A stretch of DNA of 64,000 nt from Candidatus Latescibacterota bacterium (GTDB taxonomy: Bacteria > Latescibacterota > UBA2968 > GCA-2709665): assembly GCA_963667175.2 (NCBI GenBank), contig CAXXXF010000014.1, positions 64,001 to 128,000 on the forward strand, in the 5' to 3' direction. Below the pieces are notes generated by a model that worked only from the letters and a program-made list of their open reading frames with translations, had not been told where the DNA came from and did not search any database. A program made the translations under genes and the position numbers. Each line of letters begins with the position of its first letter. Position 1 is the first letter of the stretch. Below, one piece after another: positions 12,433-63,495 of this stretch.

Positions 12433-12936
12433 ATGGAACACGTTGACGGAGCCGCTGCGACAGGTCAACCGGACGCGCCGAACCGGCGATCGTGGGACTA
12501 CTGGAAACTGCCGGTGTGGTTCGGCCTGGGATTCTGCATTCTCCAGATACTGATCGCGGTCATTCGCTTCGGTACGATGCCCGCCGCCAACCCGTATGGG
12601 CTGCTCTATGCGATCCCGAGCATCGTGTCCGGCTTGGTCCTCTTCTTCGTGGCCGGCCTGCTGATCGGACTGCTGGCACAGCGCCTGTTGAGGGGCATTG
12701 TCGGACGAGGGCGCGTGTGGCTGCTGGTCGGATTGGCGGTAGCGACACCGCTCGCGGTTCTGTTCAGCCTCGTTGGCGGACTGCTCGGCCCGCATATGGT
12801 GGTCGTCTACGCACTCGTTCCGTTTCTGGTCCTTGTGGGCATCCCGATGCTGATCCATGCGATCTGGCGCCGTTTTCGAAACTCCGGAACGACCGAATCG
12901 AATCAAACGCCTGGACCGGAAGAAGATGGCGCCTGA
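12433..12936 (+). CDS. Hypothetical membrane protein (about 4 TM helices)
   Basis: Hydrophobic segments; SD GGAG. Confidence 0.7.
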   Translation: MEHVDGAAATGQPDAPNRRSWDYWKLPVWFGLGFCILQILIAVIRFGTMPAANPYGLLYAIPSIVSGLVLFFVAGLLIGLLAQRLLRGIVGRGRVWLLVGLAVATPLAVLFSLVGGLLGPHMVVVYALVPFLVLVGIPMLIHAIWRRFRNSGTTESNQTPGPEEDGA

Positions 12937-14053: not shown

Positions 14054-14252
14054 GGGGAAACCTCCTTTTTATAAGCCATTAGGCAATAAGCCTTCAGCAG
14101 TCAGCTAAAGGCGGTGAGAGGCTAGAGGTGAGACGGTAGAGGATGTGATTGCCCCGTCCGGTTTCATTTTGTGCCGGAGGCATAAAGGTAGAACCAACCA
14201 GGCAATGATGTCTTCTACCGTCTGCCGGCTCACGTCTCCCCGCTGCTTGGCG

Positions 14253-41592: not shown

Positions 41593-41616
41593 CATCTGCC
41601 GTCGCGCAGGATCGTC

Positions 41617-43926
41617 ATGCCCATCAAAAGGTACGTTTTCTATTTCATCTCCGCCGCAGTTGCGAGTGCGGTCGTGTATTTCCTGATCCCTCTGCCCCGA
41701 CCGTTATTCACGCCGGATTACAGCACGCTGGTCGTGGACCGGAACGGCCGGCTTCTGCGTGCCTTTCTCAACGACGGCCAGCAATGGTGTTTCCCACCCG
41801 ATTCCAGCCTGGCAACGCCCGACAAACTGCGGGCGGCCGTCCTTCACTTCGAAGACAGGCGCTTCTACGGCCACCCGGGCGTCGACCCGTTCGCGCTTGC
41901 CCGCGCCCTGTATCAGAACGCAGCGGCCCTGTCCGTGAAAAGCGGCGCAAGTACGCTCACCATGCAGGTAGCGCGGCTGATGCGTCCAAAGCCGCGCACC
42001 TATTTCAACAAAACGCTTGAAATGCTGCTGGCGCTGAAAATCGAGCTGTACCATACCAAGAACGAAATCCTGCGTATGTACCTGGATCACGCGCCTTACG
42101 GCCGCAACATCGTGGGCTACCAGGCCGCGACCCTCAGGTACTTCCGCAAGTTGCCCCATAAACTGACCTGGAGCGAGGCCGCGACCCTTGCGGTACTGCC
42201 CAACGCACCCGGGCTCGTCTTCCCCAACGCCGACCCCCGCCGGCTGCTGCAGAAGCGCAATCGACTGCTCGCCGGTCTGCACCGTACCGGCCATTTCGAC
42301 GCCGAAACCCTGCGCCTGGCCCGCGGCGAACCCGTGCCAATGCAAGTCTTTGCGTTTCCGGTGCTGGCGCCGCACCTGTCTCGTTTTATCAAGGGAAACC
42401 GCGGCGGCGGTCGCGTCAGAACCACCATCGACGCGGATTTTCAACGGAAACTGGAAGCCACCGTCGCGCGACACCTGGACTACCTCGATCACCGGGGCAT
42501 TGGCAATGGCGCAGCGCTGCTGGTGGACACCGGCAGCGGCGACGTCCGGGCCTACGTCGGCTCTCGGGATTTCTTTATGGCAGACCACCAGGGTCAGGTG
42601 GACGGCGTGATCGCGCCGCGTTCTTCAGGATCGCTGCTCAAGCCCTTTCTGTACGCACTGAGCATCGATCAGGGCCTTATCCTGCCCGAGACCATGGTCA
42701 AGGACGTACCCACCTTCTATAGGGGGTTCTCACCACGCAACGCCGATAAGAGCTACGACGGTCTGGTACGGGCCGAAGAGGCCCTGGTGAGATCCCTCAA
42801 TGTGCCGGCCGTGCGTCTCCTGCGGCGCTATGGCGTGTTCAATTTTCACCGCTTTCTCCGCGACGCCGGCGTCTCGACCCTGGTACGCTCCGCCGATGAC
42901 TACGGCCTGCCGCTGATACTCGGCGGCGCCGAAGTTACCCTATGGGATATGGCGCGGCTCTACCGCTGCCTTGGCCGTGGGGGACGGATCGAATCCCTGC
43001 GCTACCTGTACGGGCAGAAGGAACACAGACTGCCAGCGCCCCTCATCAGTGAGGGGGCGGCCCATCTCGTCCTGGAGGCGTTGCGCGACGTGCGGCGGCC
43101 CGGAGTCGAGTATTACTGGCGCCAGTACGAGGACCAGTGGCCCCTCGCCTGGAAGACCGGCACCAGCTATGGCCGGCGCGACGCCTGGGCGATAGGCGTG
43201 AGTCTCGAATGGACCATTGCCGTGTGGATCGGCAACTTCACGGGCGAAGGCAACCCCGACATGAGCGGCGCGCGAACGGCCGGTCCGTTGCTCTTTGACA
43301 TTTTCAACGGCGTCCCCAGGAGCCTCGATCAGGCGTGGTTTCCACGGCCCGACGCCGACCTGGAAGCCGCGACGTTGTGTGTGGAAAGCGGCCGACCCGT
43401 CAACCCCCATTGCCCACGTACTACCCGGACCCTGGCGCCCCGTTATAGGCGCCCCATGGACCGCTGCGCCTACCATCGGAGCGCCGTCCTCAATGGAGCG
43501 GGCACCCGTCAGGTGTGTTCTCTGTGCTGGCAGCCGGGCGACCACAAATTGGCGTCGCAAACGGTCTATCCGCCCGACGTCGTGCAATATCTCCGGGATC
43601 GGGGGCAGGCGCTCCACGATCCGCCGCCTCACAGGGCGGAATGCCCCGCGCAACCCGAAGCCAGGCCCCTGCAGGTGCTCTATCCGACGCCGGAAGCCCG
43701 CCTGCAGGTTGGCCGGGATCTGGACGGCGCCCGGCAGAAAATTATCCTCAGGGCGGCTCACAGCCACCGGGAGCGCGCATTGTTCTGGTACGTGAATCGC
43801 CGGTACCTGGGCAGTACCGTAAACCGCCACCGATTGGCGGTGTCCCTTGCGCCGGGCACACAGGCTCTGGAAATCGTCGATGCCCACGGCTTTCGCGACC
43901 GCGTTCGGTTTTACGTCGTACGTTGA
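41617..43926 (+). CDS. pbpC: Penicillin-binding protein 1C
   Basis: FEDRRFY, GASTLTMQ, SLLKP, SLN, KTGT; canonical partner of A2M. Confidence 0.95.
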   Translation: MPIKRYVFYFISAAVASAVVYFLIPLPRPLFTPDYSTLVVDRNGRLLRAFLNDGQQWCFPPDSSLATPDKLRAAVLHFEDRRFYGHPGVDPFALARALYQNAAALSVKSGASTLTMQVARLMRPKPRTYFNKTLEMLLALKIELYHTKNEILRMYLDHAPYGRNIVGYQAATLRYFRKLPHKLTWSEAATLAVLPNAPGLVFPNADPRRLLQKRNRLLAGLHRTGHFDAETLRLARGEPVPMQVFAFPVLAPHLSRFIKGNRGGGRVRTTIDADFQRKLEATVARHLDYLDHRGIGNGAALLVDTGSGDVRAYVGSRDFFMADHQGQVDGVIAPRSSGSLLKPFLYALSIDQGLILPETMVKDVPTFYRGFSPRNADKSYDGLVRAEEALVRSLNVPAVRLLRRYGVFNFHRFLRDAGVSTLVRSADDYGLPLILGGAEVTLWDMARLYRCLGRGGRIESLRYLYGQKEHRLPAPLISEGAAHLVLEALRDVRRPGVEYYWRQYEDQWPLAWKTGTSYGRRDAWAIGVSLEWTIAVWIGNFTGEGNPDMSGARTAGPLLFDIFNGVPRSLDQAWFPRPDADLEAATLCVESGRPVNPHCPRTTRTLAPRYRRPMDRCAYHRSAVLNGAGTRQVCSLCWQPGDHKLASQTVYPPDVVQYLRDRGQALHDPPPHRAECPAQPEARPLQVLYPTPEARLQVGRDLDGARQKIILRAAHSHRERALFWYVNRRYLGSTVNRHRLAVSLAPGTQALEIVDAHGFRDRVRFYVVR

Positions 43927-49331: not shown

Positions 49332-50756
49332 GGGAATGTACCTATCTTAGTTGAAATAGAAGAGGCTCCGATGTAAATTGGATACAGTAGTCCCGAGTAG
49401 AATACTGTATCCTCATACGAAAGGAGCCTGTAATGAGCAAGGTATCATCGAAGTCTCGTGAAGTCAAGTTGAACACGGAAGGTGTTGTGAGTTCCAGGGC
49501 GGTCTCCGCAGGTATGCTGGAGGATGTTGACGTCCGTGTGGCCTTGATCCAGTCGCTGATCCCTCTGGGTCTGGCCGCCGTGGAAGAAATCTTGCAGAAT
49601 GAGGTCGCCGCGTTGACGGGCAAGAGATACAGTCGTAAAGCAGACAAGGCCCCGAATCGCCGGTGGGGCGTGCAACGTGGATCGGTGTATCTATCGGACC
49701 AGAAAGTGCCCGTGGCGGTACCGAGGGTGCGCGACGTGGAAGCCAATGAGGAGGTGCCTCTACAGGCGTATCGCCGCTTGCAGCGCCCCAGAGACATGGA
49801 CGAAGGGTTGCTGCTTCGCGTTCTGGGCGGCCTTGCCACGCGTTCTTACGCCAGTTGCGCAGAGGCGGTACCCGAGGCGTTTGGCTTGTCTTCGTCGACG
49901 GTCTCGAAGCGGTTCATAAAGACATCAGCGGCCAAGCTGAGGCAGTTTCAAGAACGGTCGCTTGCCGGCTATGACCTGGTGGGGCTGTTTATGGATGGCA
50001 AGACCTTTGCCGATCAGCAAATGATCATCGCCCTTGGCGTGACAATCGACGGGGACAAGGTCCCGCTGGGGTTCGTGCAGGCCGCCAGTGAAAATGAGCG
50101 CGTGTGCCGGCAGTTTGTCAATTCGCTCATCGATCGCGGACTGCAGTATCACCAGGGGCTGCTGTGCCTCATCGACGGCTCGAAGGGGTTGCGGACCGCG
50201 CTGACCAAGGCCCTATCCGGATACGTCGCCATTCAACGCTGCCAGTGGCACAAACGGGAAAACGTGATCGCCTATCTGCCAAAATCACAGCAGGATGAGG
50301 TCAGAAAGGCCCTCCACGATGCGTACGACAAGGAGACCTACAACGAAGCCAAAGCCGCGCTACAGGCCCTCAAACCCTCCCTGGCGCTGAGGAACGCATC
50401 GGCACTGAACAGCCTCGAGGAAGGGCTCGAAGAAACCCTCACCCTCCATCGGCTGGGGCTCATGCCACAGCTCAAACAATCGTTCCGCACCACCAACTGT
50501 ATCGAATCCCTCAACGCCATGGTCGCTCAGCGCACACGAAATGTAAAACGATGGAACAACTCCGATCAGCGATATCGGTGGTTGGCAGCCGCGCTGTTAG
50601 ACATCGAGCCACGACTGCGGAGAATCAAAGGATACCGCTTTCTTCCTATACTCAGACTTGCCCTACAAAAACACCTCAACCTCGATCACGACGCGCAAGA
50701 GGCTTTCGCCGCCGACTAAACGCCTCTCCCGTTTCAACTAAAAATAGTACTTGCCC
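49332..50756 (+). mobile_element. IS256-family insertion sequence
   Basis: Imperfect ~35-bp TIRs (GGGAATGTAC..TTAGTTGAAA / TTTCAACTAA..GTACTTGCCC); 8-bp target duplication GCCGTCGG at 49324-49331 and 50757-50764. Confidence 0.95.
49433..50719 (+). CDS. IS256-family transposase
   Basis: VPRVR, FMDG, IDGSKGL, QRCQWHK, TTNCIESLN. Confidence 0.95.
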   Translation: MSKVSSKSREVKLNTEGVVSSRAVSAGMLEDVDVRVALIQSLIPLGLAAVEEILQNEVAALTGKRYSRKADKAPNRRWGVQRGSVYLSDQKVPVAVPRVRDVEANEEVPLQAYRRLQRPRDMDEGLLLRVLGGLATRSYASCAEAVPEAFGLSSSTVSKRFIKTSAAKLRQFQERSLAGYDLVGLFMDGKTFADQQMIIALGVTIDGDKVPLGFVQAASENERVCRQFVNSLIDRGLQYHQGLLCLIDGSKGLRTALTKALSGYVAIQRCQWHKRENVIAYLPKSQQDEVRKALHDAYDKETYNEAKAALQALKPSLALRNASALNSLEEGLEETLTLHRLGLMPQLKQSFRTTNCIESLNAMVAQRTRNVKRWNNSDQRYRWLAAALLDIEPRLRRIKGYRFLPILRLALQKHLNLDHDAQEAFAAD

Positions 50757-50920: not shown

Positions 50921-51757
50921 CTATTCACCTACCTTCTTCACGTTTGCAGATGTTTCTTTCACGTGATCATCGAAACGCTTGAGACCAATTAGATTGATAG
51001 TCGATACTACTGTTTCTTCGTTTGTCAAAAACCACTCCTTTTTGCTGCCCGGAATTCCATGACCTATTATCCTGCGTAGGTGATGCTTGATTTTGGATTC
51101 TAACCGATGTAACTGTTCGTCGTCATCGACGACCCAGATTTCAAGTATCTTTGGCGGTTCCGGCATTCCCGTAGTCTGGTCTCGAATACGCTTGTGCGCA
51201 TTCTTCTTGGACAAACCGATTTTCATATATGTCCTCATTGCGGAATCATCATTCGACGGTTTTATCGGCGCGCTCAAATAACGAGGATACGTATAAAGAT
51301 ATATCCCCGGTACGTTTGCCTTTTCGAATTCTCCAATTCGTCTTATGGTTTCACTCTCAAGATCTGCATTCTCCCTTTCCACTCCCTTGGGATCGTTTGC
51401 ATATCTTTCACATTCTTTCTCTCGTTCCTCAATCTTCCGTTTAGTGGTTTCGCTTAGAACTCCACCATGCCGAGTCCGAAAATTCCGCAACGCGCTTTCA
51501 GTCTGTTTGGCAAGGGTTGGTTTGTCAGGTATTTCTCCATTTATAATTGCGCCGAGGTAACGCCTATAATTGTAGACAAAACCCCTTGTAGCTTTGTCCA
51601 GTTCCTTTTTAATCTCGTCAGGTGTCTTTTTTTCGGGGTAGGTAAGTTTCCAGACGTCTCCGAGTAGCTGATCGTCACTATCAAGTGCCTTTCTTACTTC
51701 CTGCATGTATTTTTCGCCGCCCACTTTACGCCTCCTTCGAGTCTTTATTATATCCAC
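50921..51757 (-). CDS. GIY-YIG (T5orf172-like) nuclease-domain protein
   Basis: GIYLYTYP...MKIGLS...RIRDQ...LESKI...KEWF; helical N-terminal region. Confidence 0.82.
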   Translation of the reverse strand: MDIIKTRRRRKVGGEKYMQEVRKALDSDDQLLGDVWKLTYPEKKTPDEIKKELDKATRGFVYNYRRYLGAIINGEIPDKPTLAKQTESALRNFRTRHGGVLSETTKRKIEEREKECERYANDPKGVERENADLESETIRRIGEFEKANVPGIYLYTYPRYLSAPIKPSNDDSAMRTYMKIGLSKKNAHKRIRDQTTGMPEPPKILEIWVVDDDEQLHRLESKIKHHLRRIIGHGIPGSKKEWFLTNEETVVSTINLIGLKRFDDHVKETSANVKKVGE

Positions 51758-52106: not shown

Positions 52107-52979
52107 TTAGATTTCTACTGTATCACAGCTACCTGCAAGTAGCCAATATGAGTATATCCAATGAATGCAAGTAACGGTAAATTCTGGAGCGCCGAAACCA
52201 CCAGAATCATCGTGGCCGTCCTGGCGTTGGCAACATCCAATTTCATCGCTACCTTTGGAATTGTGTATTATATGACAAGCGATCTGGAACGGCGTATGGA
52301 TAGGCGATTCGACAGAATCGAAGTTCGCCTGGACAGAATTGACTCTCGATTGGATTCCTTCGGTGAACGCATCGCCGCGAACGAAGCGAGGCTGAACGCC
52401 AAAGATTAAGAATCCGCCGCACCACGACATTTCGTCAACAGCCCGCCTGCCAGTATGCCAATTGGCAGGCTTTGTTATGCTGACCCCCTTGTGCCAACAT
52501 TCAGTGAGAACACGCACCCTCCGAGTCCAATGTAAAATATCACGGTGGCTTGGCCCCCGGTTCTGGGTCCAGGGTGTTTTCGTGCCGCCCTGCGAGGTCG
52601 ATTTCTCCTCCTGCTCCATCTCCCATAGATCGTCCGCTTTGTCCAGCCCGTCCAGGGAATCCATCATCGCAGCGTTCGCTTCCTCCTCGAAATGCTCTGC
52701 TCGTTCTCGATCACCGGCCTTCCATTTCTCTGCCGCGGCCTCCCAGGCTTTGGCTGCTCCTTTCGCCGCAATACATCCCCTCGCAAGGGCGCCCTGAGCC
52801 TCCGACTCTGCAGACCGCCTGGTGAAATTGCCTTCCCGCTTCGAATAATCGACGGCCGCCTTCTCGGCAATCTCCCGCCACGTGGCCGCTTCCGCCCTTG
52901 CCTTCTTCGCCGCCGCATCGTTAACTGCCACACGTCTCCGGCCCTGTTCGTTACGGGGTTTGTTTTTCTTGTCCGCCAT
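52107..52979 (-). CDS. Ala/Glu-rich helical hypothetical protein (3' end uncertain)
   Basis: SD GGAG; first ~130 aa look coding, the rest overlaps the antisense gene and looks non-coding. Confidence 0.45.
   Translation of the reverse strand: MADKKNKPRNEQGRRRVAVNDAAAKKARAEAATWREIAEKAAVDYSKREGNFTRRSAESEAQGALARGCIAAKGAAKAWEAAAEKWKAGDRERAEHFEEEANAAMMDSLDGLDKADDLWEMEQEEKSTSQGGTKTPWTQNRGPSHRDILHWTRRVRVLTECWHKGVSITKPANWHTGRRAVDEMSWCGGFLIFGVQPRFVRGDAFTEGIQSRVNSVQANFDSVESPIHTPFQIACHIIHNSKGSDEIGCCQRQDGHDDSGGFGAPEFTVTCIHWIYSYWLLAGSCDTVEI
52161..52409 (+). CDS. Small TM plus coiled-coil protein
   Basis: One TM helix then heptads RFDRIEVRLDRIDSRLD; TTGACA-N16-TAGATT at 52086-52113. Confidence 0.7.
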   Translation: MNASNGKFWSAETTRIIVAVLALATSNFIATFGIVYYMTSDLERRMDRRFDRIEVRLDRIDSRLDSFGERIAANEARLNAKD

Positions 52980-53064
52980 GACGCGTCTCCACGTGTTTAG
53001 AACGCTCGGTCCCGGTCTGTTTATCTGTAGTGGATAGAGCAGTGATCGCTCCATACAATATGAA

Positions 53065-53718
53065 TCAATCCATTTCAAGCGAGGAATGGAAAGTAACGTC
53101 CCCAAGGAGCGACTCCCATGTTTTCTCTCCGACTTCCTTGCCCCCGACGACGGCGCTTGATTGGCCCACCCGAAATGCGCGGTTGAGCTTTCCTGTCGGT
53201 CACCCATCCTTGTTGAATGTCAGGGCAAAATCAGGACTGTAGTTTATGACATAACCGTTTGGCTTTCCTAAAAAGGGAACCACACGCGGTAGGGCTTCTC
53301 GTGCCTGTTTCTCGTACGATTCAGGAGTCGACCCGTCCTTGAACGTAATAATCCGATGACGGGATCCGCCGGTCATCGCGTAAAACGTGATCTGACTCGG
53401 TGCGTTTTGCTCCGTCAGAATCACCGCGTGAGGCTTGAAGGTTGCACGATAGGCCTGATCTTCGGCTTCATTCAGTTCCGCGCGGGTGACCTCAATTGAC
53501 TCGTCAATCACGTTGACTTCCACCTCAAGCCACTCTGCAAGCTCGACCCGGAGGTTCTCCGCGAATTCAACCCGACCACCATAGATCTGGTCGATTCGAC
53601 GACAACCTTTTGCGAGATTGGCATATCCCATTCGCCGGACAAGCTTACCGCGGGCGATACCGAGATCCTGCATCCGTTGGCGGATTAAACGCGCTATTGA
53701 AAAATCCCTTCGAGTCAT
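53065..53718 (-). pseudogene. HTH-like hypothetical protein with in-frame TGA at 53200-53202
   Basis: SD GGAGG; XRE-like N-terminus; frame stays open for 44 plausible codons after the TGA. Confidence 0.6.
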
Positions 53719-53895: not shown

Positions 53896-56676
53896 TCAGA
53901 AGCCAAGGGGTGCGACGCCGGGTTTGTGGCGGCATTCCTCGGCGAGTGCGCGGCCGATGCGCACCGGGTCATTGAGAAAATTCATGATCTTCGCACGCTC
54001 GCGGACGTTCGCGAAGTCCGCGGGCGTGAGTTTTTCGAGTGCGAGTGCCTCCAGGGGCGTTTCACAACCGAAAAAGAGCCTGAACGCCCGTTCGACGCGT
54101 TCCCGGTCCATGTAGAAAAACTCGACCCTGAACATGAAGCGGCGGGCGGCCGCCGGATCGAGCGCTTCCCGCCGATTCGTCGTGCAGGCGAAGGGAAGCG
54201 GGTGCCGCTCCATCTGGCTGAGCATTTCGTTGACCATGCTGGTTTCCCACGACCGCACGGCGTGCTCCCGGTCCATCAGGAGGGAGTCGGCCTCGTCGAA
54301 CACAAGGAATGAACCAGTCTCTACGGCTTCCGTAAAGGCCGCTGCCATCTGCTGTTCGGTTTCCCCCACCCACTTGCTCAACAGATCCGAAGCTCGTTTC
54401 GGCAACAGTTCCATCCCCATTCGTTCGGCAATGTGGCGCACAAAGGCCGTCTTCCCGGTTCCGGGCGGGCCGTACAGACAGAGCGCGAAACGCTTCGCGC
54501 CGATTTCAACCATCCGTGCGGTCAATGCTTCCAGACTCGTATCCGCGTTGACCAGTGTCGGATCGTAATTCCAAATAGGTTCGCCTTTGGAAGGACGGAC
54601 GCCGTAACGCAGTTTCACTTTCTGTTCAACATTCCGCCGGATGACATCCGCGTTCCCCGCGATCATAGCCGCCTGATGCGTGGCCAGATCCAGGTGCCTG
54701 GGGGTCACTTTGTCGTCGTGCGCCAGTTCCGTCGCAAGTCGCCGCGCTTCCGGATCAGTCACCTGTGCATTGGTGAGGATACCGGAGAACACACGCTTCC
54801 TCGCGCCGACGGACATGCGGCGGAATTCGATCGCGTGCATCATCCGGTCGATGAAGAACGGCTGAATCATCCGGTAGAAGCCAATCGAGTTGCACGCCCA
54901 GATGATGGGCACCGGATTTTCTTCGACGATGCGATTCAGCCAGTGTTTCTCCACGCTGTCGAAGTCCTCCATTTCATCGAAGAAAATCACCGAGTCGGGC
55001 TCGTCGGCCAGCGATTCGAGCGCATAATCGAGTGTTTTTGTGCGTGAAACTGAAAGACGCTCCCGGGATCCGACCTCATTGTTGCCGATCGCGTACATCC
55101 GTGCGCCCGCCTCGCCGCAGAGCGTGCGCGCAAATTCGGTTTTTCCGGTTCCTGGGGGTCCGTACAGGAGCATATTGATGCCCTTTTTCTTTGCATCCAT
55201 CGCCGCCGCGAGGGTCTGTCTTACGTCTTCGGCGACCGGCCCCAGATGCGCAAAAGCCGTCCACGGCAGGGCAGCCCGTACCGGCGCCCCCAGTCGTGGG
55301 CGCGCTCTATTGGCGGCGATTGTGAGCTCGGACCGTTCGCAGAGATTGTAAAGGTCCGATTCCGTTCCGCCCACAAGGCAGGTCGTTTCAATGGCCTTCG
55401 CCAGGATGCCCGGCGGACATTCGAGACGATCCACAAGTCGTCTGGCACATTTGGTAGCGTCGATACCCTCGATGCCGCTTTCGGCCAGCATTCGTCCTAG
55501 AATAGCAGCCTGACGCGTCGGGCCGTGGGCAGTGAACCTGACAACCATCGTGAAGCGTCGGAGCATGCTCTCGTCCAGATCTTTCAGACTGTTCGCGGTG
55601 TATATCACCGGAACGGGATTCTCCTCCATCAGCCGGTGGTTGGCGAGGCGGGAGCCGCTGGTGGATTCCAGCGCGTCCTCTGCCTCGTCACACAGAATCG
55701 CGGCTTCGGGCATGGTCTGAAGCAGTGTTTGCGCCATGCGCAGTTCATTGCGCCGGTCGGCGCGCCTGTCGTTATCGGTATCACAGGATTCCTCGTATCC
55801 ACGTCGCAATTCGCCAACCGGGAAAAGTGTCATACCCGAGGCGGCTGCGACAGTTTTGGCAAATTCCGTTTTTCCCGTTCCGGCCCTGCCCCAAAGCAGG
55901 ATGTTGACGCCCTGCGCATCTAAACCCTCGGTACGGTAATTCTTCGTTGCACGCAGAAACCGGAGAGTGTCGTCGCGTTCGCCCACGTGCGCAAAGTCGT
56001 CCAGACACAATGTGGCTTGCAATGGGTCACCGACCAAACGCGCCGTCAACTCGCCCATTTCGCGCACCGGCGGCTGCCAGACTTCCCACATGAAGTCGTT
56101 GATCAGGTCATCGGGGTCGTGGTGGCCGCGCACCCGGGTGGCGACTTCCCAATCGGCGATGCCCACGTCCGCCAGTTCCCGTAGGCCGCGCTCGATCTCG
56201 AGTCGAGGGCGCCTCGGGATAAGCGTCATTGTCTCGACGGGATTGTTACACGAGCGAGCGATGCCATCCCAAATGTCTTTGGCCAGAGTACAGTGGGTGT
56301 AACAGTGTGCGAGTTCAAGCAGCGCGGCGGCCGCCGGCCCCAGCGAGAAGCGATCGACGACAAGACGGGTTGCGGTTGCGTCGCGGCTGAATTCGGGAGG
56401 GCGGCTTGTCTTTTGCTCGAGGACTTGAAATGCTATTTTCAGGTTGACTTTGAGACTCTCCGATGGCACGTCTGCAAATTGCGGGTCGTCCAACAACTCT
56501 TGAAACAGTTCCGAATTATCGATCCAGGATTCGAAATCAGACCGAATGCGTCGACTGAACTGAGCTGCGTGCAATACATTCACCATGTATCTGCGCGCAA
56601 GATACAACGTGTACTCTCCGAACACCGGAGGATGTTTGCTTTCCGAAAACAGATCGTCGATATTTCGTTTGCCCAT
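53896..56676 (-). CDS. AAA+ ATPase with three tandem AAA modules
   Basis: Walker A GRAGTGKT, GPPGTGKT, GPPGTGKT; Walker B ILCDE, IFFDE, LVFDE; SKWVGE pore loop in module 3. Confidence 0.92.
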   Translation of the reverse strand: MGKRNIDDLFSESKHPPVFGEYTLYLARRYMVNVLHAAQFSRRIRSDFESWIDNSELFQELLDDPQFADVPSESLKVNLKIAFQVLEQKTSRPPEFSRDATATRLVVDRFSLGPAAAALLELAHCYTHCTLAKDIWDGIARSCNNPVETMTLIPRRPRLEIERGLRELADVGIADWEVATRVRGHHDPDDLINDFMWEVWQPPVREMGELTARLVGDPLQATLCLDDFAHVGERDDTLRFLRATKNYRTEGLDAQGVNILLWGRAGTGKTEFAKTVAAASGMTLFPVGELRRGYEESCDTDNDRRADRRNELRMAQTLLQTMPEAAILCDEAEDALESTSGSRLANHRLMEENPVPVIYTANSLKDLDESMLRRFTMVVRFTAHGPTRQAAILGRMLAESGIEGIDATKCARRLVDRLECPPGILAKAIETTCLVGGTESDLYNLCERSELTIAANRARPRLGAPVRAALPWTAFAHLGPVAEDVRQTLAAAMDAKKKGINMLLYGPPGTGKTEFARTLCGEAGARMYAIGNNEVGSRERLSVSRTKTLDYALESLADEPDSVIFFDEMEDFDSVEKHWLNRIVEENPVPIIWACNSIGFYRMIQPFFIDRMMHAIEFRRMSVGARKRVFSGILTNAQVTDPEARRLATELAHDDKVTPRHLDLATHQAAMIAGNADVIRRNVEQKVKLRYGVRPSKGEPIWNYDPTLVNADTSLEALTARMVEIGAKRFALCLYGPPGTGKTAFVRHIAERMGMELLPKRASDLLSKWVGETEQQMAAAFTEAVETGSFLVFDEADSLLMDREHAVRSWETSMVNEMLSQMERHPLPFACTTNRREALDPAAARRFMFRVEFFYMDRERVERAFRLFFGCETPLEALALEKLTPADFANVRERAKIMNFLNDPVRIGRALAEECRHKPGVAPLGF

Positions 56677-56791
56677 AGCCGGCACTCCCTTCCGCTACTC
56701 GCATTTTCGCCCGCGGCGTTCACCGGATTCGCCGTTCCATTTCCGATGGCCGAAACACAAAAAGAGGCGCGTTCGCGATTGAACACGCCTC

Positions 56792-56826
56792 AAGCTAAAC
56801 AGGATATGCGACGAACCGCGTCGTAT
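56792..56826 (-). promoter_or_regulatory. Putative WYL-activator box plus -10 element
   Basis: Minus strand ATACGAC-N7-GTCGCAT (56826-56806) followed 8 nt later by TAGCTT. Confidence 0.7.
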
Positions 56827-56830
56827 GTCG

Positions 56831-57793
56831 TCAGGTTTTTTTGTAAAATCCCAGATTTTTTTCAAGTTCCTCCGAGATTTCCGCACGAAGCGAGGCCGGT
56901 TTCAGAACTTCGGCGCTGGCGCCGTGGCTCAGAATCCACGCCTTGATCTCATAGAGGCCACCTGCGCGAAAGTGAAGAATGATTCCTTCGTCTTCCAATT
57001 CCTCGATCTCCTGCGACGGGTGCCAGATCCGTTGTCTGATATACGGCGCCTGGGATGCCGAGAAGCGGACGCTAACGTCGATCGGCGCTTCAAGAACGAC
57101 ACCGAATGCCTGATTGAGCTGTTCCTCGATTCCTGAATCTTCGGACGCGTCGAACGACCGGGACGTAATCCGGATATCCTGAATCCGCTCCGCGGCGAGG
57201 GTCAGCAGATTTCCGTATTTCGGATTGCAGCATAGCAGATACACGCCATCGTAATGGTACAGAAACCTGAACGGCAGCACAGGATAGGTCTTGCTTTCAC
57301 CGGTACTCATAGCGCGGTAGGTCACGTTGCAGACTATTCGCTCCGTGATTGCTTCTTGCGCGATTTGAAATACCTGAGGGGTAACTTGAGCCTTCTGTCC
57401 GCGAATATGTGGATGATAGGCCGCCTGTTCCAGGAATGCGCGCATTTTCTCCGGCAGCGTTGTCCGGATCCTGTTCAGGCTTTTCTGATATTCGGTCTTA
57501 AAGGGCGATTCCTCGAGGATTCCAGTGATGTAGGTCAGAGCGATCAGCTCTCCGACCGGGAAATTCAGAGGCGAAACGCTGCTATCGCCCAGGAGTTTCC
57601 AGGTGTTCTGGCGGCCCCGTTTTTCCGTAGTCAGTGGAAATCCGGCGTCGTCAAGGTCGCGCAGGTCGCGCTCAATCGTCCTCCGCGATACCTCGAAATG
57701 CTTCTCAAGATCGTGGATCGTCGCGCCAAATCTGCGCGATGCGAGTTCTCGCAGCATATCCAGCTGACGAACGATCTGTCTCTTGTCTGCCAT
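56831..57793 (-). CDS. WYL-domain transcriptional regulator (wHTH-WYL-WCX)
   Basis: VSRRTIERDLRDL HTH; YPVLPFRFLY..VYL..AERI; WHPSQ; WILSHG..EVLKPASLR. Confidence 0.93.
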   Translation of the reverse strand: MADKRQIVRQLDMLRELASRRFGATIHDLEKHFEVSRRTIERDLRDLDDAGFPLTTEKRGRQNTWKLLGDSSVSPLNFPVGELIALTYITGILEESPFKTEYQKSLNRIRTTLPEKMRAFLEQAAYHPHIRGQKAQVTPQVFQIAQEAITERIVCNVTYRAMSTGESKTYPVLPFRFLYHYDGVYLLCCNPKYGNLLTLAAERIQDIRITSRSFDASEDSGIEEQLNQAFGVVLEAPIDVSVRFSASQAPYIRQRIWHPSQEIEELEDEGIILHFRAGGLYEIKAWILSHGASAEVLKPASLRAEISEELEKNLGFYKKT

Positions 57794-57902
57794 CGTTTCA
57801 CCGGATTCCCGATGCGACTCTGGTTTGAACCGAAAGCCGTCTCGTATCTTCTCACCAATTGCCGTGACGTGATTCCTGGACGCACGCGTCCGGACCCGCC
57901 AC

Positions 57903-57956: not shown

Positions 57957-58391
57957 TCAGGTATCTTCGTCTCCGCTCATCGGCAGGTCTTCAGCCGAGA
58001 TGACTCGCCGCCTCGGGCGGTCGACATTCTGAGGATTTCGCTCTCGCTCCTGCTGGACCTGCATGGTATAACGGGCCGTGGGAATCGCTTCCAGCCTGAG
58101 CTCGCCGATCATCTCCCCCGACACTTCGCAGATGCCGTAGGTTTCGTTTTCGATCTTGCCCAGCGCATGGTCGATCTCGGCCAGCTCGCGCCGTTCGTTG
58201 TTGCCCAGGGTCGCCATCAACTCCAGGGAAATCGCGTTCCCGGCCATGTCGAACGGATCCGCGGAACGGTCCTTTCTGAGTTCGTCAATGTCGGCATCTT
58301 CCAGGCTGGTTTGTTTCAACAGGTCTTTCTTCCGATCCAGCAGCAACTTCTGGTAAAACGCCAGCTTTTCAGGTGTCAGTTTCTCGGGCAT
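57957..58391 (-). CDS. dksA: TraR/DksA-family transcription factor
   Basis: DPFDMA tip, TYGICEVSGEMI..RLEAIPTARY (reduced-Cys variant). Confidence 0.88.
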   Translation of the reverse strand: MPEKLTPEKLAFYQKLLLDRKKDLLKQTSLEDADIDELRKDRSADPFDMAGNAISLELMATLGNNERRELAEIDHALGKIENETYGICEVSGEMIGELRLEAIPTARYTMQVQQERERNPQNVDRPRRRVISAEDLPMSGDEDT

Positions 58392-58702: not shown

Positions 58703-59359
58703 TCAGGCCCGGCCCTGTGACGGGCACAACGCGCCCACACCGCATGCGTCGCAATCCGGCGACCGGGCGCTGCAGATCGCCCGTCCGTGATGAATAAACA
58801 GATGCGGCAGATCCACCCAGTCTTTCTTTGGGACCAGCCCGATCAGGTCCTGTTCGATTTTGACAGGGTCCTGCCTGCGGGTAAGGCCCAGACGATTGGA
58901 AATCCGGCGCACGTGCGTATCCACCACCACGCCTTCTGCAATACCGAATGCGTTGCCGAGAACGACGTTGGCGGTCTTTCTTCCAACGCCGTCGAGAGCC
59001 ACCAGTTCATCCAGAGTCCGTGGCACCTCGCCGCCGTGGTTTTCCAGCAGCGCCCGGCAGCACCCCTGGATGTTGCGCGCCTTGTTGCGAAAAAAACCCG
59101 TCGAGCGGATGAGATCCTCCAATTCTTCAAGGGGCGCATCGGCATAATCCGCGGCCGTCGGACACCGCTCGAAGAGACCGGGCGTCACCCTATTGACGCG
59201 TTCGTCGGTACACTGTGCCGAGAGCATCGTGGCGATCAGCAACTGGAGCGGATTCTCGTAAGACAGCGAACACTCGGCGTCAGGATAGACGCCCCTTAAC
59301 TTTCCGATGATCGCCCGCGTCCTCGACCGCCTCGCAACCAGATCTTCGTCCGGCTCCAT
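58703..59359 (-). CDS. nth: Endonuclease III
   Basis: LSAQCTD, GVGRKTAN, VDTHV, C-X6-C-X2-C-X5-C. Confidence 0.95.
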   Translation of the reverse strand: MEPDEDLVARRSRTRAIIGKLRGVYPDAECSLSYENPLQLLIATMLSAQCTDERVNRVTPGLFERCPTAADYADAPLEELEDLIRSTGFFRNKARNIQGCCRALLENHGGEVPRTLDELVALDGVGRKTANVVLGNAFGIAEGVVVDTHVRRISNRLGLTRRQDPVKIEQDLIGLVPKKDWVDLPHLFIHHGRAICSARSPDCDACGVGALCPSQGRA

Positions 59360-59388
59360 CGTATCGGAATTCCTCATCTGCTCCGCGG

Positions 59389-60177
59389 CTACCACGGCCG
59401 CACCGCGGGGACTGGCTGTTCGAGGCCGTCCGCGCGAACGTTCTCGCCATTCACCCAGCGGGCGCGGTCCGACGCCAGAAACACGACCACGTCGGCGACG
59501 TCTTCCGGAGATCCGAGGCCGCCCATGGGAAATCCGTCTCTCTCGTAAGCGGCGAACACTTCCGGTTTTTCCTGACGCAACCCGTCCCACCCGCCGCCTT
59601 CGAAAATGATCGACCCCGGCGATACCACGTTTACGCGGATGCGGTCGTGCACCAGCTCGAGCGCCATGGGTTCGGCCATGAAAATCTGGGCGGCTTTGGA
59701 CGCGCCGTACTGAACCGCGCCGCTCAGCTGCGGTATCCATCCCGAGATGGACGAAATGAACACCACCGAACCGCCGCCTCGCGCTCGCATGTGAGGGACC
59801 ACGAGCCGGGTCAGCCGCACGCCGTGGAACACGTTTTTGTCGAAGGTCTCCACCCAATCCTCGTCGGTCGAATCCATCAGCCTGTCGCCGGACCGGCCGC
59901 CCACGTTATTGATGAGGACGTCGATTCCGCCAAGCCGTGCAGCGGATTCCTCCACAAACCGCTCAGCGTCGTCAGGGTCCTGCACGTCCGCCTGGATGGC
60001 GGAAACGCGAACGCCCAGCGCTTCGATTTTCGCCGCTGCCTCTTCCAACGTCTCCTCCCGCCGCGCGCAGATCGCGACGTCGCATCCCTCCGTCGCCAGT
60101 CCCATCGCCGTCGCGAGACCGATCCCGCGGTTCCCACCCGTCACCAGCGCGACTTTTCCCTTCAGATTCATATCCAT
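59389..60177 (-). CDS. SDR-family oxidoreductase
   Basis: TGGNRGIG, NNVG, YGASK; SD GGAGG. Confidence 0.93.
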   Translation of the reverse strand: MDMNLKGKVALVTGGNRGIGLATAMGLATEGCDVAICARREETLEEAAAKIEALGVRVSAIQADVQDPDDAERFVEESAARLGGIDVLINNVGGRSGDRLMDSTDEDWVETFDKNVFHGVRLTRLVVPHMRARGGGSVVFISSISGWIPQLSGAVQYGASKAAQIFMAEPMALELVHDRIRVNVVSPGSIIFEGGGWDGLRQEKPEVFAAYERDGFPMGGLGSPEDVADVVVFLASDRARWVNGENVRADGLEQPVPAVRPW

Positions 60178-60474
60178 GAAGACCTCCATTCAATTATCTA
60201 TTTTACCGTAGACTCTTCCCCACCCCACAAAATCCCGTATTCCCTTTCAAGAGGCGGTGAGACGGGAAAGAGAAGAAGGAATACGGGTTGGTCATCCTGC
60301 GGCTTATCCATTGTGTCCTGACAGGTCGCCTGTCGGCGGACAACCCACTCAAAATTGCTTTCGTGCAGGAGACAGGCCTTCGCGAATTGACGAATTGACA
60401 AAGCCAGACAATATGGATATCCAGTGGACACCGGGTGATCGTCTCCCCTCTCCCGTCTTACGTTTCACCACTCT

Positions 60475-60654: not shown

Positions 60655-61764
60655 CTAATCGGTTTTGGCAGGATGCTGAGCGCTGTCTGTTTTGAGTTTG
60701 TCTACGAAGCATCGGACGAACGCAGCGACTTCAGATAATTCCTCAGTGTAGCAAAAGCGTTCTTTTAGAGGGACCTTATATCCGTCCTCAAAATCGATCC
60801 CAAGCTCTTGTAGCAGCGTCTTTAATTTCTCCAGCTTGGAGTTATCGGGGGGCTCGGGTTCGATTCTTAGAAATACCTCAAAACGCCAACCTTTTGGGTC
60901 AATTGCGGTGTTGAACCCGATGATTTCGGAAAACGAAGAGTGCTTGAGATTATAGCAGAGAACATCATAGAGCTTGTGCGGCTCTCTCCACTTGAGCTGG
61001 CTTTCACAAATCTTGCCGACAGACTCTTCCAACTCCTTCTCGAGATCCAAAACTCTCCTGCGGAGTTCGTTCTTGAACTTATCAATTCTCTTGAAGAAAT
61101 CCGTGGCCTTTGTGAGATTGTCATCATTTTCCAGGAAACGGGCTAATTCTTCGTTCATTATCCTGCCCTCCCGCAGACCGTCAACTGTATTCAGGAAATC
61201 AAGCATGAACGTGAGATAACGGGTATTCGCTCTTGAGACTTTGTACCCGAGCTGCGATCTGACTTCGTTGAACAACTGCTCGTACGTGATATTCTTGAAC
61301 GGTTCGACGTCGCCGCCTGGTTTGAGGCTCAGAATAAACAGGTGTTTCTTGAGATGCACGTAATGCGTTTCTACGTGCTTTATATAGTCTTCAAATGGGT
61401 TGCTGATTTCGTGAAAAATCTTGTTCTCGATCACGATGGCATGGCTTTCAGACTGAATCAAGAGGTCGATCCGACTCCCCTTCCGGGTGGTTTCTTCGCG
61501 GCGGATCTGTATATCGCCACCGATCTCCCTTCCCTGTTCTCCGATGCAGCCAGCCCGCACAAGAGCATCCAGAAACAGCGTTCCGAGTCCATGCGGGTTG
61601 CCGGGATCAAGGAAGAAGGCGAGAATGTTGCTGCACACATTCTCGTAGTGAGGATAGCCTGAAATTTCCATCAACGTCGGCGGGCGCTCGGGACGCGGCG
61701 GAACCTGTTTGCTAAATTCGTCCAGGAGAGTCTGGGCAGCATCCACGTCCCATCCATCGTTCAT
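60655..61764 (-). CDS. PD-(D/E)XK nuclease-family protein
   Basis: HYENVCSNILAFFLDP..HGLG, RIDLLI, IVIENKI. Confidence 0.88.
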   Translation of the reverse strand: MNDGWDVDAAQTLLDEFSKQVPPRPERPPTLMEISGYPHYENVCSNILAFFLDPGNPHGLGTLFLDALVRAGCIGEQGREIGGDIQIRREETTRKGSRIDLLIQSESHAIVIENKIFHEISNPFEDYIKHVETHYVHLKKHLFILSLKPGGDVEPFKNITYEQLFNEVRSQLGYKVSRANTRYLTFMLDFLNTVDGLREGRIMNEELARFLENDDNLTKATDFFKRIDKFKNELRRRVLDLEKELEESVGKICESQLKWREPHKLYDVLCYNLKHSSFSEIIGFNTAIDPKGWRFEVFLRIEPEPPDNSKLEKLKTLLQELGIDFEDGYKVPLKERFCYTEELSEVAAFVRCFVDKLKTDSAQHPAKTD

Positions 61765-61824: not shown

Positions 61825-62331
61825 CTATATTAGCACGTAGGGAGAATTCGCCAAGACAAACCGAGCTTTTTCACGGCGTAACATTTCAAACGGCGTCAGA
61901 CACTTGATACCGAGACCTATACAGACGCTGGGGATCTTTATCCTGTTCATAGATGGTGACGGGATCTCGTGTGTAACAACGTCATAACCACCTGCAAGCG
62001 CGTGGGCGATCAGGTAACAGTCAGCCACTTGCAGAAAAGTGTCGATGGCTGCAGCCTGGTAACCGTGGCCTCTTATCCAATCACCGACTGTTCCAAGCGC
62101 TACAAGCACCTCCATGGTCGGTTTAAGAAAAAAGGCATCGCCACGACAGTCTGCCCAAATCGCAAGGTCGTCTTCGCCGGCTGCGACTTCGTCGGCGACT
62201 TTTTCAATGCTGAAAACGATTCCCCGTTCGTTCGCCGTGACCAGCCAATTCCAGAACCCAGGACATATTTCGAAGCCGTAATGCAAGTTCTTGGCACGGA
62301 TAAAAGCGTCTGCATCAAGCAAATATGCCAT
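61825..62331 (-). CDS. DUF4411-family PIN-like protein
   Basis: YLLDADAFI, CPGFW, ADCYLIAHA, VVTHE, IKIP. Confidence 0.9.
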   Translation of the reverse strand: MAYLLDADAFIRAKNLHYGFEICPGFWNWLVTANERGIVFSIEKVADEVAAGEDDLAIWADCRGDAFFLKPTMEVLVALGTVGDWIRGHGYQAAAIDTFLQVADCYLIAHALAGGYDVVTHEIPSPSMNRIKIPSVCIGLGIKCLTPFEMLRREKARFVLANSPYVLI

Positions 62332-63495
62332 CTACGATCCCACTTTCAGACTCGTGGCAAATGCCCGTAACGTCGATACCTTCTTGATTCCGAGAAGACG
62401 GAAGGACTCGGAAAACGAAGTCCTCCCACCCAGTGTGCTGGTCACAATGGCGCCGCCAAACCGCCCACCCACACGCGCCTTGAGCGTGGGATGGAAGCTA
62501 CCACCGCTCGTCTTTTCAATGTTCCCTATTCGATCCAGTTCTCGGCCGTAGGCGGACCCAAGCGCATCACGGTCGAGCACGCCGCCATCGTGGAGCCGAC
62601 GCAGTACGACCAAGGTGCTGACTTTGAATTGGCGAGCAAGGCGGTTCAGCTGGATTGGAAGTTCCTCCCTCTTACGGTAACTCTCAAGTAAGGACCTGAG
62701 TGGTACGAGAAGCTCGGCGGCGACACGGTTGCACCAACCCTCTATTTCGTGGGCAGGCACGGAAACCACGTCAGCATCGGAAAGCGCAGATTCGCCAAGC
62801 CAGATGTGCCCGAGTTCATGTGCCAGCGTAAACATCTGTGCCGCTTTGGTGTCGGCGCCGTTAATAAAGACAAGCGGTGCAAGATCGTCGCTCAGGGCGA
62901 AGCCCCGAAACTCTTCGGGGTCCAGCCTGCGGCGGGTGTTGTTGCCAACGATCCCGCTTGTCATCACCAATACGCCCAGTGCATCGGCCTGCTGAATAAA
63001 GCGTCTTAGCGCCTCGGTCCAGGTACGTAGATCGTTCCTCTCCTCGACGTCGAAACCCAGTTCGGCTCTAATCTCTTCCGCAGTGGTCTCAACGTCGCTG
63101 CCAGTTGTAGTGGAACCCACGAACGCCAGCGGATCTTCTCCCTCAATGCGTGCATAGTCACGGTACCAATCCTGGCGCCGTAAGCAGAGATAAACAGTTT
63201 CCAAAAGTTCGACGCTGGGCCGTCCGACGAACTCATTGCCTATCGTTCGCATGTCAGGTATAGGGACCGGTTCATCAAGTGGCGCAGAGAGAAAGAACGA
63301 ACCGATCGGCGCATAGGTGACCCGGGCAAGCTTCTCCAGTTGCTTGAGCGTCGGCTGTTTCTCACCGCTTTCCCACTCAGGATACCTGGGAAATCGCTTA
63401 ACGAGAGCGTCGACGTGAATGCCCGCCCGCTCGCGCGCCCAGCGAAACATCTCCGGTTTGACATCAACGCGCAGTGTCATTGGCGACTCCTCCAT
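62332..63495 (-). CDS. XRE-HTH plus ImmA/IrrE metallopeptidase
   Basis: WESGEKQPTLKQL HTH; FTLAHELGH; E.WCNRVAAELL. Confidence 0.93.
   Translation of the reverse strand: MEESPMTLRVDVKPEMFRWARERAGIHVDALVKRFPRYPEWESGEKQPTLKQLEKLARVTYAPIGSFFLSAPLDEPVPIPDMRTIGNEFVGRPSVELLETVYLCLRRQDWYRDYARIEGEDPLAFVGSTTTGSDVETTAEEIRAELGFDVEERNDLRTWTEALRRFIQQADALGVLVMTSGIVGNNTRRRLDPEEFRGFALSDDLAPLVFINGADTKAAQMFTLAHELGHIWLGESALSDADVVSVPAHEIEGWCNRVAAELLVPLRSLLESYRKREELPIQLNRLARQFKVSTLVVLRRLHDGGVLDRDALGSAYGRELDRIGNIEKTSGGSFHPTLKARVGGRFGGAIVTSTLGGRTSFSESFRLLGIKKVSTLRAFATSLKVGS

Follow-up and report, generated by a model that had tools for sequence, protein, structure and literature searches.

A DriD-type WYL regulator and its operator upstream of a three-module AAA ATPase in Latescibacterota: a candidate DNA-damage-inducible unit

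WYL activators such as DriD, DdaA, PafBC, and SiwR are emerging as a second great bacterial system of DNA-damage sensing beside LexA/RecA, and their known targets are mostly familiar repair genes. A locus of a Candidatus Latescibacterota bacterium (assembly GCA_963667175.2, contig CAXXXF010000014.1, positions 64,001 to 128,000; the whole stretch of 64,000 nt is referred to as the window) raises the question of what such a regulator might do next to an unusual ATPase of the AAA type. On the minus strand of the window, the gene of a WYL regulator, a 21-bp palindrome and the gene of a 926-aa ATPase follow each other in this order. An initial annotation, made from the sequence alone, had read this arrangement as an inducible WYL-operator-ATPase unit. 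The linkage of the ATPase to WYL genes and the conservation of the palindrome support this proposal and sharpen it to a unit of the DriD type. We consider it rather probable that the pair is a two-gene inducible unit of the DNA-damage type, in which a Cdc48-like unfoldase would be induced by single-stranded DNA (ssDNA) under an activator of the DriD/DdaA type. Regulator and operator are of a known kind; the new element is their conserved coupling to an uncharacterised AAA+ family, which is represented here by a three-module form. This coupling provides a concrete candidate for protein remodelling within the bacterial DNA-damage or anti-phage response. Moreover, as a classical AAA machine that occurs in nature with three modules, the ATPase is of interest for structural study.

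Regulator and operator

The regulator gene (57793..56831, minus strand, with the ATG at 57793 and the stop at 56831) encodes a protein of 320 aa. Its start can be regarded as fixed, with 17/17 aligned homologues beginning at the Met of ATG 57793. Pfam matches to HTH_11 (E 1.2e-9, residues 9-59), WYL (1.9e-8, 141-209), and WCX (3.3e-20, 237-312) revealed the succession of a wHTH (winged helix-turn-helix) domain, a helical linker region, the WYL domain and a WCX dimerisation domain. Together with the start shared by the homologues, this bears out the wHTH-WYL-WCX gene recognized by the initial annotation. In a sequence comparison with the PDB, the best solved relative was DriD (E 3.6e-12, residues 7-311), a distant one at 49.6 bits, and PafBC matched at an E-value of 2e-3 only. 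DriD, deposited as the complexes 9PFQ, 9PFV, and 9PGA (PMC13004042) and the entries 7TZV and 7U02 (PMC9186387), is the Caulobacter crescentus activator of a DNA-damage response that is independent of SOS. The recognition helix of the window's regulator reads S-R37-R38-T39-I40-E41-R42 and carries the motif RRTxER, as in DriD. Therein, R38, E41, and R42 align to Arg37, Glu40, and Arg41, described as the base-reading residues of DriD (PMC10853764), and R38, T39, and R42, which correspond to DriD Arg37, Thr38, and Arg41, are invariant within the 17 homologues.

Downstream of the regulator gene lies ATACGACGCGGTTCGTCGCAT (56826..56806), the 21-bp palindrome reading ATACGAC-GCGGTTC-GTCGCAT on the minus strand. 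It starts 5 nt 3' of the WYL stop codon and ends 129 nt 5' of the ATPase start codon. Compared with the published DriD site ATACGAC(X)7GTCGTAT and its core CGXC(X)7GXCG (PMC13004042, PMC10853764), it matches at 13 of the 14 specified positions, shares the 7-nt spacer and shows a perfect core. Within the 64 kb, it is the sole site at no more than one mismatch to this consensus, and no such site occurred in 50 shuffles. The palindromic box reported earlier to follow the WYL gene is thus not only present but unique in the window.

Based on the 13/14 identity of the box, the conservation of the base-reading residues and DriD being the best solved match, we assign regulator and operator on the sequence level to the DriD/DdaA-type ssDNA-sensing WYL activators. 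DriD and DdaA are both ssDNA- or damage-activated activators with sites of the CGAC-N7-GTCG type. In addition to the domain order, the RRTxER helix and the operator with its spacer length, the window shares with DriD the position of the target gene beside the regulator, in Caulobacter represented by the divergent CCNA_03891/CCNA_01149 operon (PMC13004042); the presumed target differs, being an AAA ATPase here. A further difference concerns the promoter of the regulator gene itself. The 197 nt that precede the WYL start contain no perfect DriD-type core, and the closest candidate, 74 nt upstream, has one core mismatch, whereas an own-promoter site is given for 68 of 69 alphaproteobacterial DriD homologues (PMC10853764). 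Since DriD itself is described as not autoregulated (PMC13004042) and hence does not regulate its own gene, such a site would not be essential to a DriD-type mechanism. DdaA (Acinetobacter/Moraxellaceae) resembles the window's unit as a DriD-like activator with a CGWCA-N5-TGWCG / CGAC-N7-GTCG-type site, but the genes at the centre of its regulon are recA, uvrA, ssb, and aciT, and it was absent among the homologues retrieved here. The actinobacterial Pup-proteasome locus near PafBC includes the gene of an AAA unfoldase. PafBC is similar to the present case in being a WYL regulator of DNA-damage genes with its gene close to that proteasome locus (PMC9186387). In contrast, apart from its marginal match to the regulator, it binds the -26 region of promoters devoid of a -35 element.

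The three-module ATPase and its linkage to WYL genes

The ATPase gene (56676..53896, minus strand; ATG at 56676, stop codon at 53896-53898) encodes 926 aa. PF00004 matched three stretches of the protein, and each module alone matched the whole classical AAA profile, with E-values of 2e-8 for D1, 3.8e-12 for D2, and 8e-26 for D3. Throughout 15 sequences of 43-70% identity, none of the three modules varies in its Walker A, Walker B, sensor-1 Asn and Arg-finger residues. The three complete AAA modules that had been proposed for this protein, encoded on the same strand as the regulator, are therewith confirmed, and because their motifs are invariant in the 15 homologues, all three ATP sites are probably active. 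Module D1 (55941..55282, minus strand, residues 246-465) contains the Walker A motif GRAGTGKT, the Walker B motif ILCDE, N362, and R373-R374; an aromatic pore loop is absent. In D2 (55281..54577, minus strand, residues 466-700), the corresponding elements are GPPGTGKT, FFDE, N596, and R611, accompanied by a degenerate pore loop E-V-G. Solely D3 (54576..53899, minus strand, residues 701-926), with GPPGTGKT, VFDE, N834, and R845-R846, holds an aromatic-hydrophobic-Gly pore loop (K-W-V-G), its aromatic position being W, Y or F in 14 of the 15 homologues.

The best PDB sequence matches of D3 were VAT, Cdc48, and p97, with E-values down to 5.7e-29. Congruently, the AlphaFold2 model of the ATPase (mean predicted local distance difference test score, pLDDT, of 78.8) found its best structural matches in Cdc48, p97, Rix7, and AFG2. 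The likeness to Cdc48/p97/VAT hence extends over the D3 sequence and the fold of the whole model, and the ATPase possesses both Walker motifs, sensor 1, Arg fingers and an aromatic pore loop as well. It ends at the number of modules, three instead of two, at D1 and D2 without aromatic pore loops, and at the N-terminal domain, which is helical, belongs to no known family and has no match to the N-domains of Cdc48/p97/VAT. This domain (56676..55942, minus strand, residues 1-245; model pLDDT 80) gave no Pfam family above cut-off and 0 Foldseek matches to the PDB at E<=0.001; Atlas provided a winged-helix lead only. Residues 1-18 are probably disordered, a winged-helix-like stretch is located at about residues 145-200, and a conserved stretch follows the pattern LGxSRxxVExALRxLxEVGIAD. 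A phmmer search with the N-domain against 1.84 billion representatives retrieved 18 proteins, assigned to the ATPase's own family or to fragments of its members. Among them, 11 are short (177-434 aa) and six have 636-981 aa; the latter include P0026, P0042, P0100, and P0119, which were also found by the search with the whole ATPase. The weakest match (810 aa, E 4e-5) consists of eight short stretches and is doubtful.

Full-length relatives of the ATPase (905-1043 aa) are numerous and carry generic names only ('AAA family ATPase', 'SpoVK/Ycf46/Vps4 family'); named ones stem from Gemmatimonadota, Acidobacteriota, and Rhodospirillales. For the lineage of the window, the named best matches belong to Gemmatimonadota (65-72% identity) and Latescibacteria (55-70%). 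More widespread are two-module relatives of 640-812 aa, found on proteobacterial plasmids as well as chromosomes. These are named 'ATP-binding protein' or 'AAA family ATPase' in RefSeq and lack D1. Their sequence runs in parallel to D2-D3, with an identity of 31-39% and E-values of 1e-57 to 7e-94, and D2 aligns to their first module. As judged from its sequence, D1 is a duplicate of D2, to which it is most alike (26% identity over 215 aa, E 4e-19). Since D1 is closest to D2 and the commoner two-module relatives are colinear with D2-D3, we take the triple-AAA form to be the derived one, D1 having been added through duplication. The phage family phrog_10401 ('ATPase') matches D2-D3 as well (E 7.9e-69) and corresponds to the two-module relatives. 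On the Leisingera plasmid L084, the ATPase relative at 4422-6425 is annotated as a 633-nt 'hypothetical protein' followed by an 'AAA family ATPase', so that the two-module protein is either split there or frameshifted.

Scanning genome contigs with generic Walker-A patterns yielded 80 loci, composed of one full-length orthologue (L001), 12 two-module forms and 67 unrelated AAA loci, which served as controls. A WYL gene was present in 16 of 28 loci of relatives versus 2 of the 67 control loci; the WYL profile used included some of the positives, which are also WYL by Pfam or RefSeq annotation. Within the plasmid loci, 10 of 15 had a WYL gene within the fetched stretch, in varying gene orders: ATPase then WYL, WYL then ATPase, divergent, and one gene apart. 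A complementary comparison considered contig sizes in the window's own clade. Of the ATPase clusters P0003-P0063, 61 in number and of 55-100% identity, 18 have a longest contig of the same size in nucleotides as that of a WYL homologue, among them seven contigs between 4.4 and 17.3 kb (4412, 6813, 9226, 9323, 12789, 15235, and 17329 nt). Contigs without a match are uninformative, as each cluster reports only one contig. In the ATPase clade of 42-49% identity, no same-size contig shared with a WYL homologue was seen. On contigs of close relatives, the dksA-WYL-ATPase order of the window recurs. These data agree with the linkage of homologous ATPases to WYL genes that an inducible unit of this kind would call for.

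For the operator, 23 loci were scanned with the published DriD consensus over a stretch of 300 nt upstream of the ATPase gene or the operon containing it. When up to 4 of the 14 positions were allowed to differ, 12 of these loci showed a box; with up to three, six did. The background, determined from 20000 random windows of the 67 control loci, amounted to 5.3% and 0.86%, respectively, resulting in binomial tails of 4e-10 and 3.5e-8, which ignore the relatedness of the loci. The box is thus conserved well above background, as an operator of the ATPase would be. Six loci (L002, L004, L008, L010, L011, and L013) stood outside this count, the start of their ATPase being undetermined, and contained no site at three or fewer mismatches anywhere in the locus. 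In many relatives, the boxes are located 35-95 nt upstream of the ATPase start. Locus L086 has the layout of the window, consisting of WYL stop, box and ATPase, with no room for a terminator, and in L083 and L095 the box is present without a nearby WYL gene. With regard to WYL genes and DriD-type boxes, the two-module relatives are linked in the same way as the triple-AAA ATPase. Across the compared loci, the ATPase is thereby tied to DriD-type regulators and boxes in Alpha-, Beta-, and Gammaproteobacteria as well as in the lineage of the window. Because WYL genes accompany the ATPase, contigs are shared within its own clade and the box is conserved upstream, we regard the ATPase as the target of the regulator.

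The same adjacency could have a different origin. The ATPase might act on the regulator or its nucleoprotein complex, e.g., by stripping the WYL dimer or its ssDNA-bound form off the DNA and thereby resetting the response, and adjacency would then reflect a physical partnership and not only that of a regulator and its target. Its persistence across the gene orders (WYL-ATPase, ATPase-WYL, and divergent) and the winged-helix-like stretch in the N-domain would be in line with such a role. We rate it as very improbable, given that the linkage already has an explanation in the box conserved upstream of the ATPase and that some loci possess a box without an adjacent WYL gene.

The Marinacidobacterium locus L001, with an ATPase of 46% identity, is the only other triple-AAA locus compared as DNA. 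By tblastx, it shared no neighbour with the window except the ATPase. Three DriD-type boxes with 2-3 mismatches (4398-4418, 12672-12692, and 14085-14105) lie within 18.5 kb around its triple-AAA gene, one of them preceding a DriD-like WYL gene, whose start is probably the TTG at 14202, by about 95 nt. This suggests a local cluster of box-controlled genes. A second DriD-type box beside the WYL gene was also observed on the Rhodobacterales plasmids L081 (7441-7461) and L084 (7430-7450). In both cases, it separates the WYL gene from a gene set of the composition ADP-ribosylglycohydrolase (-HEPN)-PD-(D/E)XK, and the same regulator probably drives these sets.

Promoter geometry, proposed mechanism and competing readings

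Between operator and ATPase gene, we detected an intrinsic-terminator-like hairpin that the initial annotation had not mentioned. It is formed by GAGGCGTGTTC-AATCGC-GAACGCGCCTC and followed by the T run TTTTTGTGTT (56791..56754 including the T run, hairpin at 56791..56764, minus strand). The terminator scan counted 11 pairs, seven of them G-C, and the RNA fold of 56835..56745 reached -30.6 kcal/mol (z -2.07). This hairpin probably ends the WYL transcript. Concerning the promoter, the -10 element formerly placed at the box, TATCCT (56806..56801, minus strand), abuts the box but is ambiguous as a -10; the geometry of DriD promoters points instead to TTCAAT (56783..56778, minus strand), 22 nt after the box. 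The candidate was predicted from the didA promoter, where the 20-bp DriD site ends at -36, and DriD sites are described to cover the -35 position and to keep their distance to the -10 constant (PMC13004042). A/T-rich hexamers occur 20-23 nt after the box in several relatives, too. Transcription of the ATPase would accordingly be expected to start at about 56771, in the 3' arm of the hairpin. A terminator overlapping an activator-dependent promoter, as predicted here, would represent a neat regulatory design.

In the favoured reading as a DNA-damage-type unit, the WYL protein would be a homodimeric activator of the DriD/DdaA type. A nucleic-acid ligand, most likely ssDNA arising from DNA damage or from phage or plasmid replication, would bind the WYL/WCX region and free the winged-helix domains to bind the box ATACGAC-N7-GTCGCAT. 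The bound dimer would act by activation rather than repression, occupying the -35 position as at DriD promoters and recruiting RNA polymerase to a weak promoter, whose -10 (probably TTCAAT) and start site would lie within the hairpin ending the regulator transcript. Transcripts of the WYL gene would stop at this hairpin, and box-dependent transcripts would run into the ATPase; we propose that the ATPase mRNA lacks the 5' arm of the hairpin and is therefore not terminated. The induced 926-aa protein would be a ring ATPase similar to Cdc48/p97, in which D3 with its aromatic pore loop may thread or unfold a protein substrate. As D1 and D2 have no such pore loops, they are proposed to be assembly or regulatory tiers that bind and probably hydrolyse ATP. 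The family-specific N-domain, helical and winged-helix-like, might be responsible for selecting the substrate or, possibly, DNA. Most likely, such a machine would serve to remove or recycle proteins located at DNA that is damaged or foreign. Repair-type genes found as neighbours in relatives comprise PD-(D/E)XK nucleases, DUF2779, an MmcB-like gene, a UvrD-type helicase, SbcCD, and Pol II.

This reading may be extended, speculatively and at low probability, to the entire two-/three-module AAA+ family as conserved core effector of the WYL/DriD ssDNA response in several phyla. Its members would be an ssDNA-induced bacterial equivalent of what Cdc48/p97 is at the damaged chromatin of eukaryotes, targeted by the N-domain, extracting or unfolding trapped proteins (crosslinked, stalled, or from phage replication) and, in relatives, passing the DNA to PD-(D/E)XK nucleases. 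The triple form would then be a new three-tier architecture or a dimeric pseudo-hexamer.

A number of observations weigh against a damage-induced unit of the DriD type. On the side of the regulator, a single pairwise HMMER alignment shows only three of the seven ssDNA-contact residues of DriD to be kept (Y168, S172, and Y192), but not DriD R178, K202, R204, and W206, so that its ligand may be another than that of DriD. DdaA is reported to deviate at one Arg among these residues as well (PMC12392091). The operator spacer GCGGTTC is GC-rich, most DriD sites have no GC-rich spacer, and such a spacer is stated to have cut DriD binding 20-fold (PMC10853764). On the side of the promoter, a strong terminator-like hairpin separates the operator from the ATPase gene, and a sigma-70 consensus scan called no promoter between box and ATPase gene. 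TTCAAT is a weak hexamer that deviates from the conserved A in position 2, and the search for a -10 gave no convincing candidate. Concerning the relatives, 12 of the 28 loci have no nearby WYL gene, 11 of the 23 have no box at four or fewer mismatches, and the loci in both counts are phylogenetically non-independent. In L001, no box precedes the ATPase (best candidate with six mismatches), and the WYL gene is 3.5 kb away. Furthermore, defence-type genes are found in the neighbourhood of relatives, namely Sir2, HEPN, ADP-ribosylglycohydrolase, macro, toxin-antitoxin pairs, and BrxD (BREX).

Part of these observations would also fit a palindrome that does not operate on the ATPase at all. It could be the end structure of the WYL transcript, composed of two hairpins, or an autoregulatory or roadblock site, with the ATPase transcribed from an unrelated promoter and the neighbourhood only loosely functional. 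The box begins 5 nt past the stop codon, has a strong terminator downstream of it, forms a small hairpin of its own in the RNA fold and has a GC-rich spacer unlike most DriD sites. No sigma-70-like promoter was called between it and the gene, and in L001 a box stands upstream of the WYL gene and not of the ATPase. However, a structure of this origin is improbable in view of the 13/14 match to a protein-binding consensus together with matching reading residues in the adjacent regulator. In addition, it would not account for boxes 35-95 nt upstream of ATPase starts, including those of the WYL-less loci L083 and L095, nor for L086, where the succession of stop, box and ATPase leaves no terminator space.

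The defence-type neighbours bear on the main rival to the favoured DNA-damage unfoldase reading, an anti-phage effector under WYL control. BrxR and CapW are WYL regulators encoded beside the BREX and CBASS systems that they control. By analogy, the pair could be an anti-phage, possibly abortive-infection module, in which the WYL protein keeps the AAA+ effector, toxic or directed at phages, silent or poised until infection-derived nucleic acid switches it on, and in which PD-(D/E)XK nucleases and Sir2 would be interchangeable effector partners in relatives. Such a role is possible, if on the unlikely side. It gains support from two-module relatives, in which nuclease, Sir2 or DUF2779 partners are frequent: the gene overlapping or abutting that of the ATPase encodes a PD-(D/E)XK nuclease in L083, Sir2 in L086, and DUF2779 in L088 and L005, and HEPN, ADP-ribosylglycohydrolase, macro, toxin-antitoxin, and BrxD genes are found nearby. 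In the window, a PDC-S26 candidate (E 6.5e-87) and a DUF4411/M78 pair are encoded 3-6 kb away, and phrog_10401 shows that D2-D3 have a match among phage families. DdaA, a relative of DriD, is reported to control CRISPR-Cas and restriction-modification genes in addition (PMC12392091). In contrast, the window's ATPase has no partner effector gene, being followed by an AT-rich break and an unrelated open reading frame (ORF), and of the 45 records in the phage collection that match the ATPase, only one spans two modules. No BrxR or CapW entry, for both of which structures presumably exist in the PDB, was among the six PDB matches of the regulator at E<=0.01. The dksA-WYL-ATPase order recurring in close relatives is consistent with a stable chromosomal locus and also argues against the anti-phage role.

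The comparison with catalogued defence systems leads in the same direction. The ATPase gave partial PADLOC matches to the AAA core of IetA and TRIP13, and no PADLOC 2.0.0 model matched beyond this generic core, the best being IetA with 124-266 of 374 profile positions. IetA (of IetAS) is similar as a defence AAA ATPase matching D3, but the match is restricted to the AAA core. Among the nine neighbours scanned with PADLOC, there was no IetS, BREX or CBASS gene. The initial annotation had not recognized a named system in this locus, and this assessment stands. Among the matches listed by literature searches, there was no description of the ATPase family or of the WYL-ATPase pair and, for three-module or tandem AAA proteins, no bacterial protein of this kind. 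In the main texts of PMC9186387, PMC12392091, and PMC13010146, 'ATPase' and 'AAA' have 0 occurrences, and the same applies to 'ATPase' in the main text of PMC13004042. One lead comes from the predicted DdaA regulon of basal lineages, which contains an 'ftsH' entry, WP_228257230.1, an 'ATP-binding protein' (PMC12392091, Supplementary Table 9). It bears the same generic RefSeq name as two-module relatives and would be a candidate for kinship to the ATPase family.

Surroundings of the pair in the window

Directly 3' of the ATPase stop, the sequence takes an AT-rich turn, and the terminator scan found no terminator right after the gene. An unrelated 172-aa ORF (53718..53200) with its own promoter-like site comes next, followed by a 366-aa ORF (53207..52107) that appears to be non-coding. 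Both were rejected as operon partners of the ATPase, having no family in Pfam, NCBIfam, PADLOC or PHROGs and being preceded by the AT-rich break and the promoter-like site. Exactly at the ATPase stop codon begins the drop into a low-GC stretch (46-57%) at 44-53.9 kb, in which most ORFs have no family match. The designation of this region as rich in insertion sequences was overstated, since a Mutator-family transposase (49433-50719) is its sole recognisable transposase. The stretch further encodes a T5orf172/MUG113 endonuclease-like protein (50921-51757).

On the other side of the pair, a DksA-like gene (58391..57957, minus strand) is located upstream of the WYL gene; it matches zf-dskA_traR at 3.3e-9, with NCBIfam DksA_like below cut-off. 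It is followed by a hairpin and a T7 run. Of the dksA terminator past which the pair had been placed, the gene as well as the hairpin with its T run are therefore present, but the consensus terminator scan did not flag the hairpin. Past the DksA-like gene, we found nth, a short-chain dehydrogenase, the PDC-S26 candidate defence gene and the pair of DUF4411 and M78-peptidase genes. The nth ORF for endonuclease III (58703-59857, minus strand) is listed with 384 aa, and its Nth match spans residues 179-369 only. Its real start is probably near 59320, because the long N-terminal part overlaps the ORF of the short-chain dehydrogenase (59389-60189). The protein encoded at 60655-61764 (minus strand), 3 kb from the WYL gene, belongs to PD-(D/E)XK_4 and is matched over its full length by the PADLOC candidate PDC-S26 (E 6.5e-87), making it a likely single-gene defence candidate. 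The DUF4411 gene (61825-62331, minus strand, E 6.3e-48) abuts and lies downstream of the gene of an M78/IrrE-type peptidase protein (62332-63495, minus strand), for which RmrA/CapP-like PADLOC matches reached 1e-13. By these matches, the two look like a protease-controlled toxin-antitoxin or defence pair.

An exact 12-mer, GAATCCGGTGAA, occurs upstream of both genes of the regulator-ATPase pair (minus strand), at 56719-56730, 43 nt 5' of the ATPase ATG, and at 57797-57808, 4 nt 5' of the WYL ATG. It was discarded as not significant, since at least two matches appeared in 14 of 100 shuffles. The first 44 kb of the window contain ordinary chromosomal genes, e.g., glycosyltransferases and, at 36076-43926 (plus strand), the usual gene pair of a bacterial alpha-2-macroglobulin, 1838 aa in size, and, after it, a penicillin-binding protein of the PbpC type.

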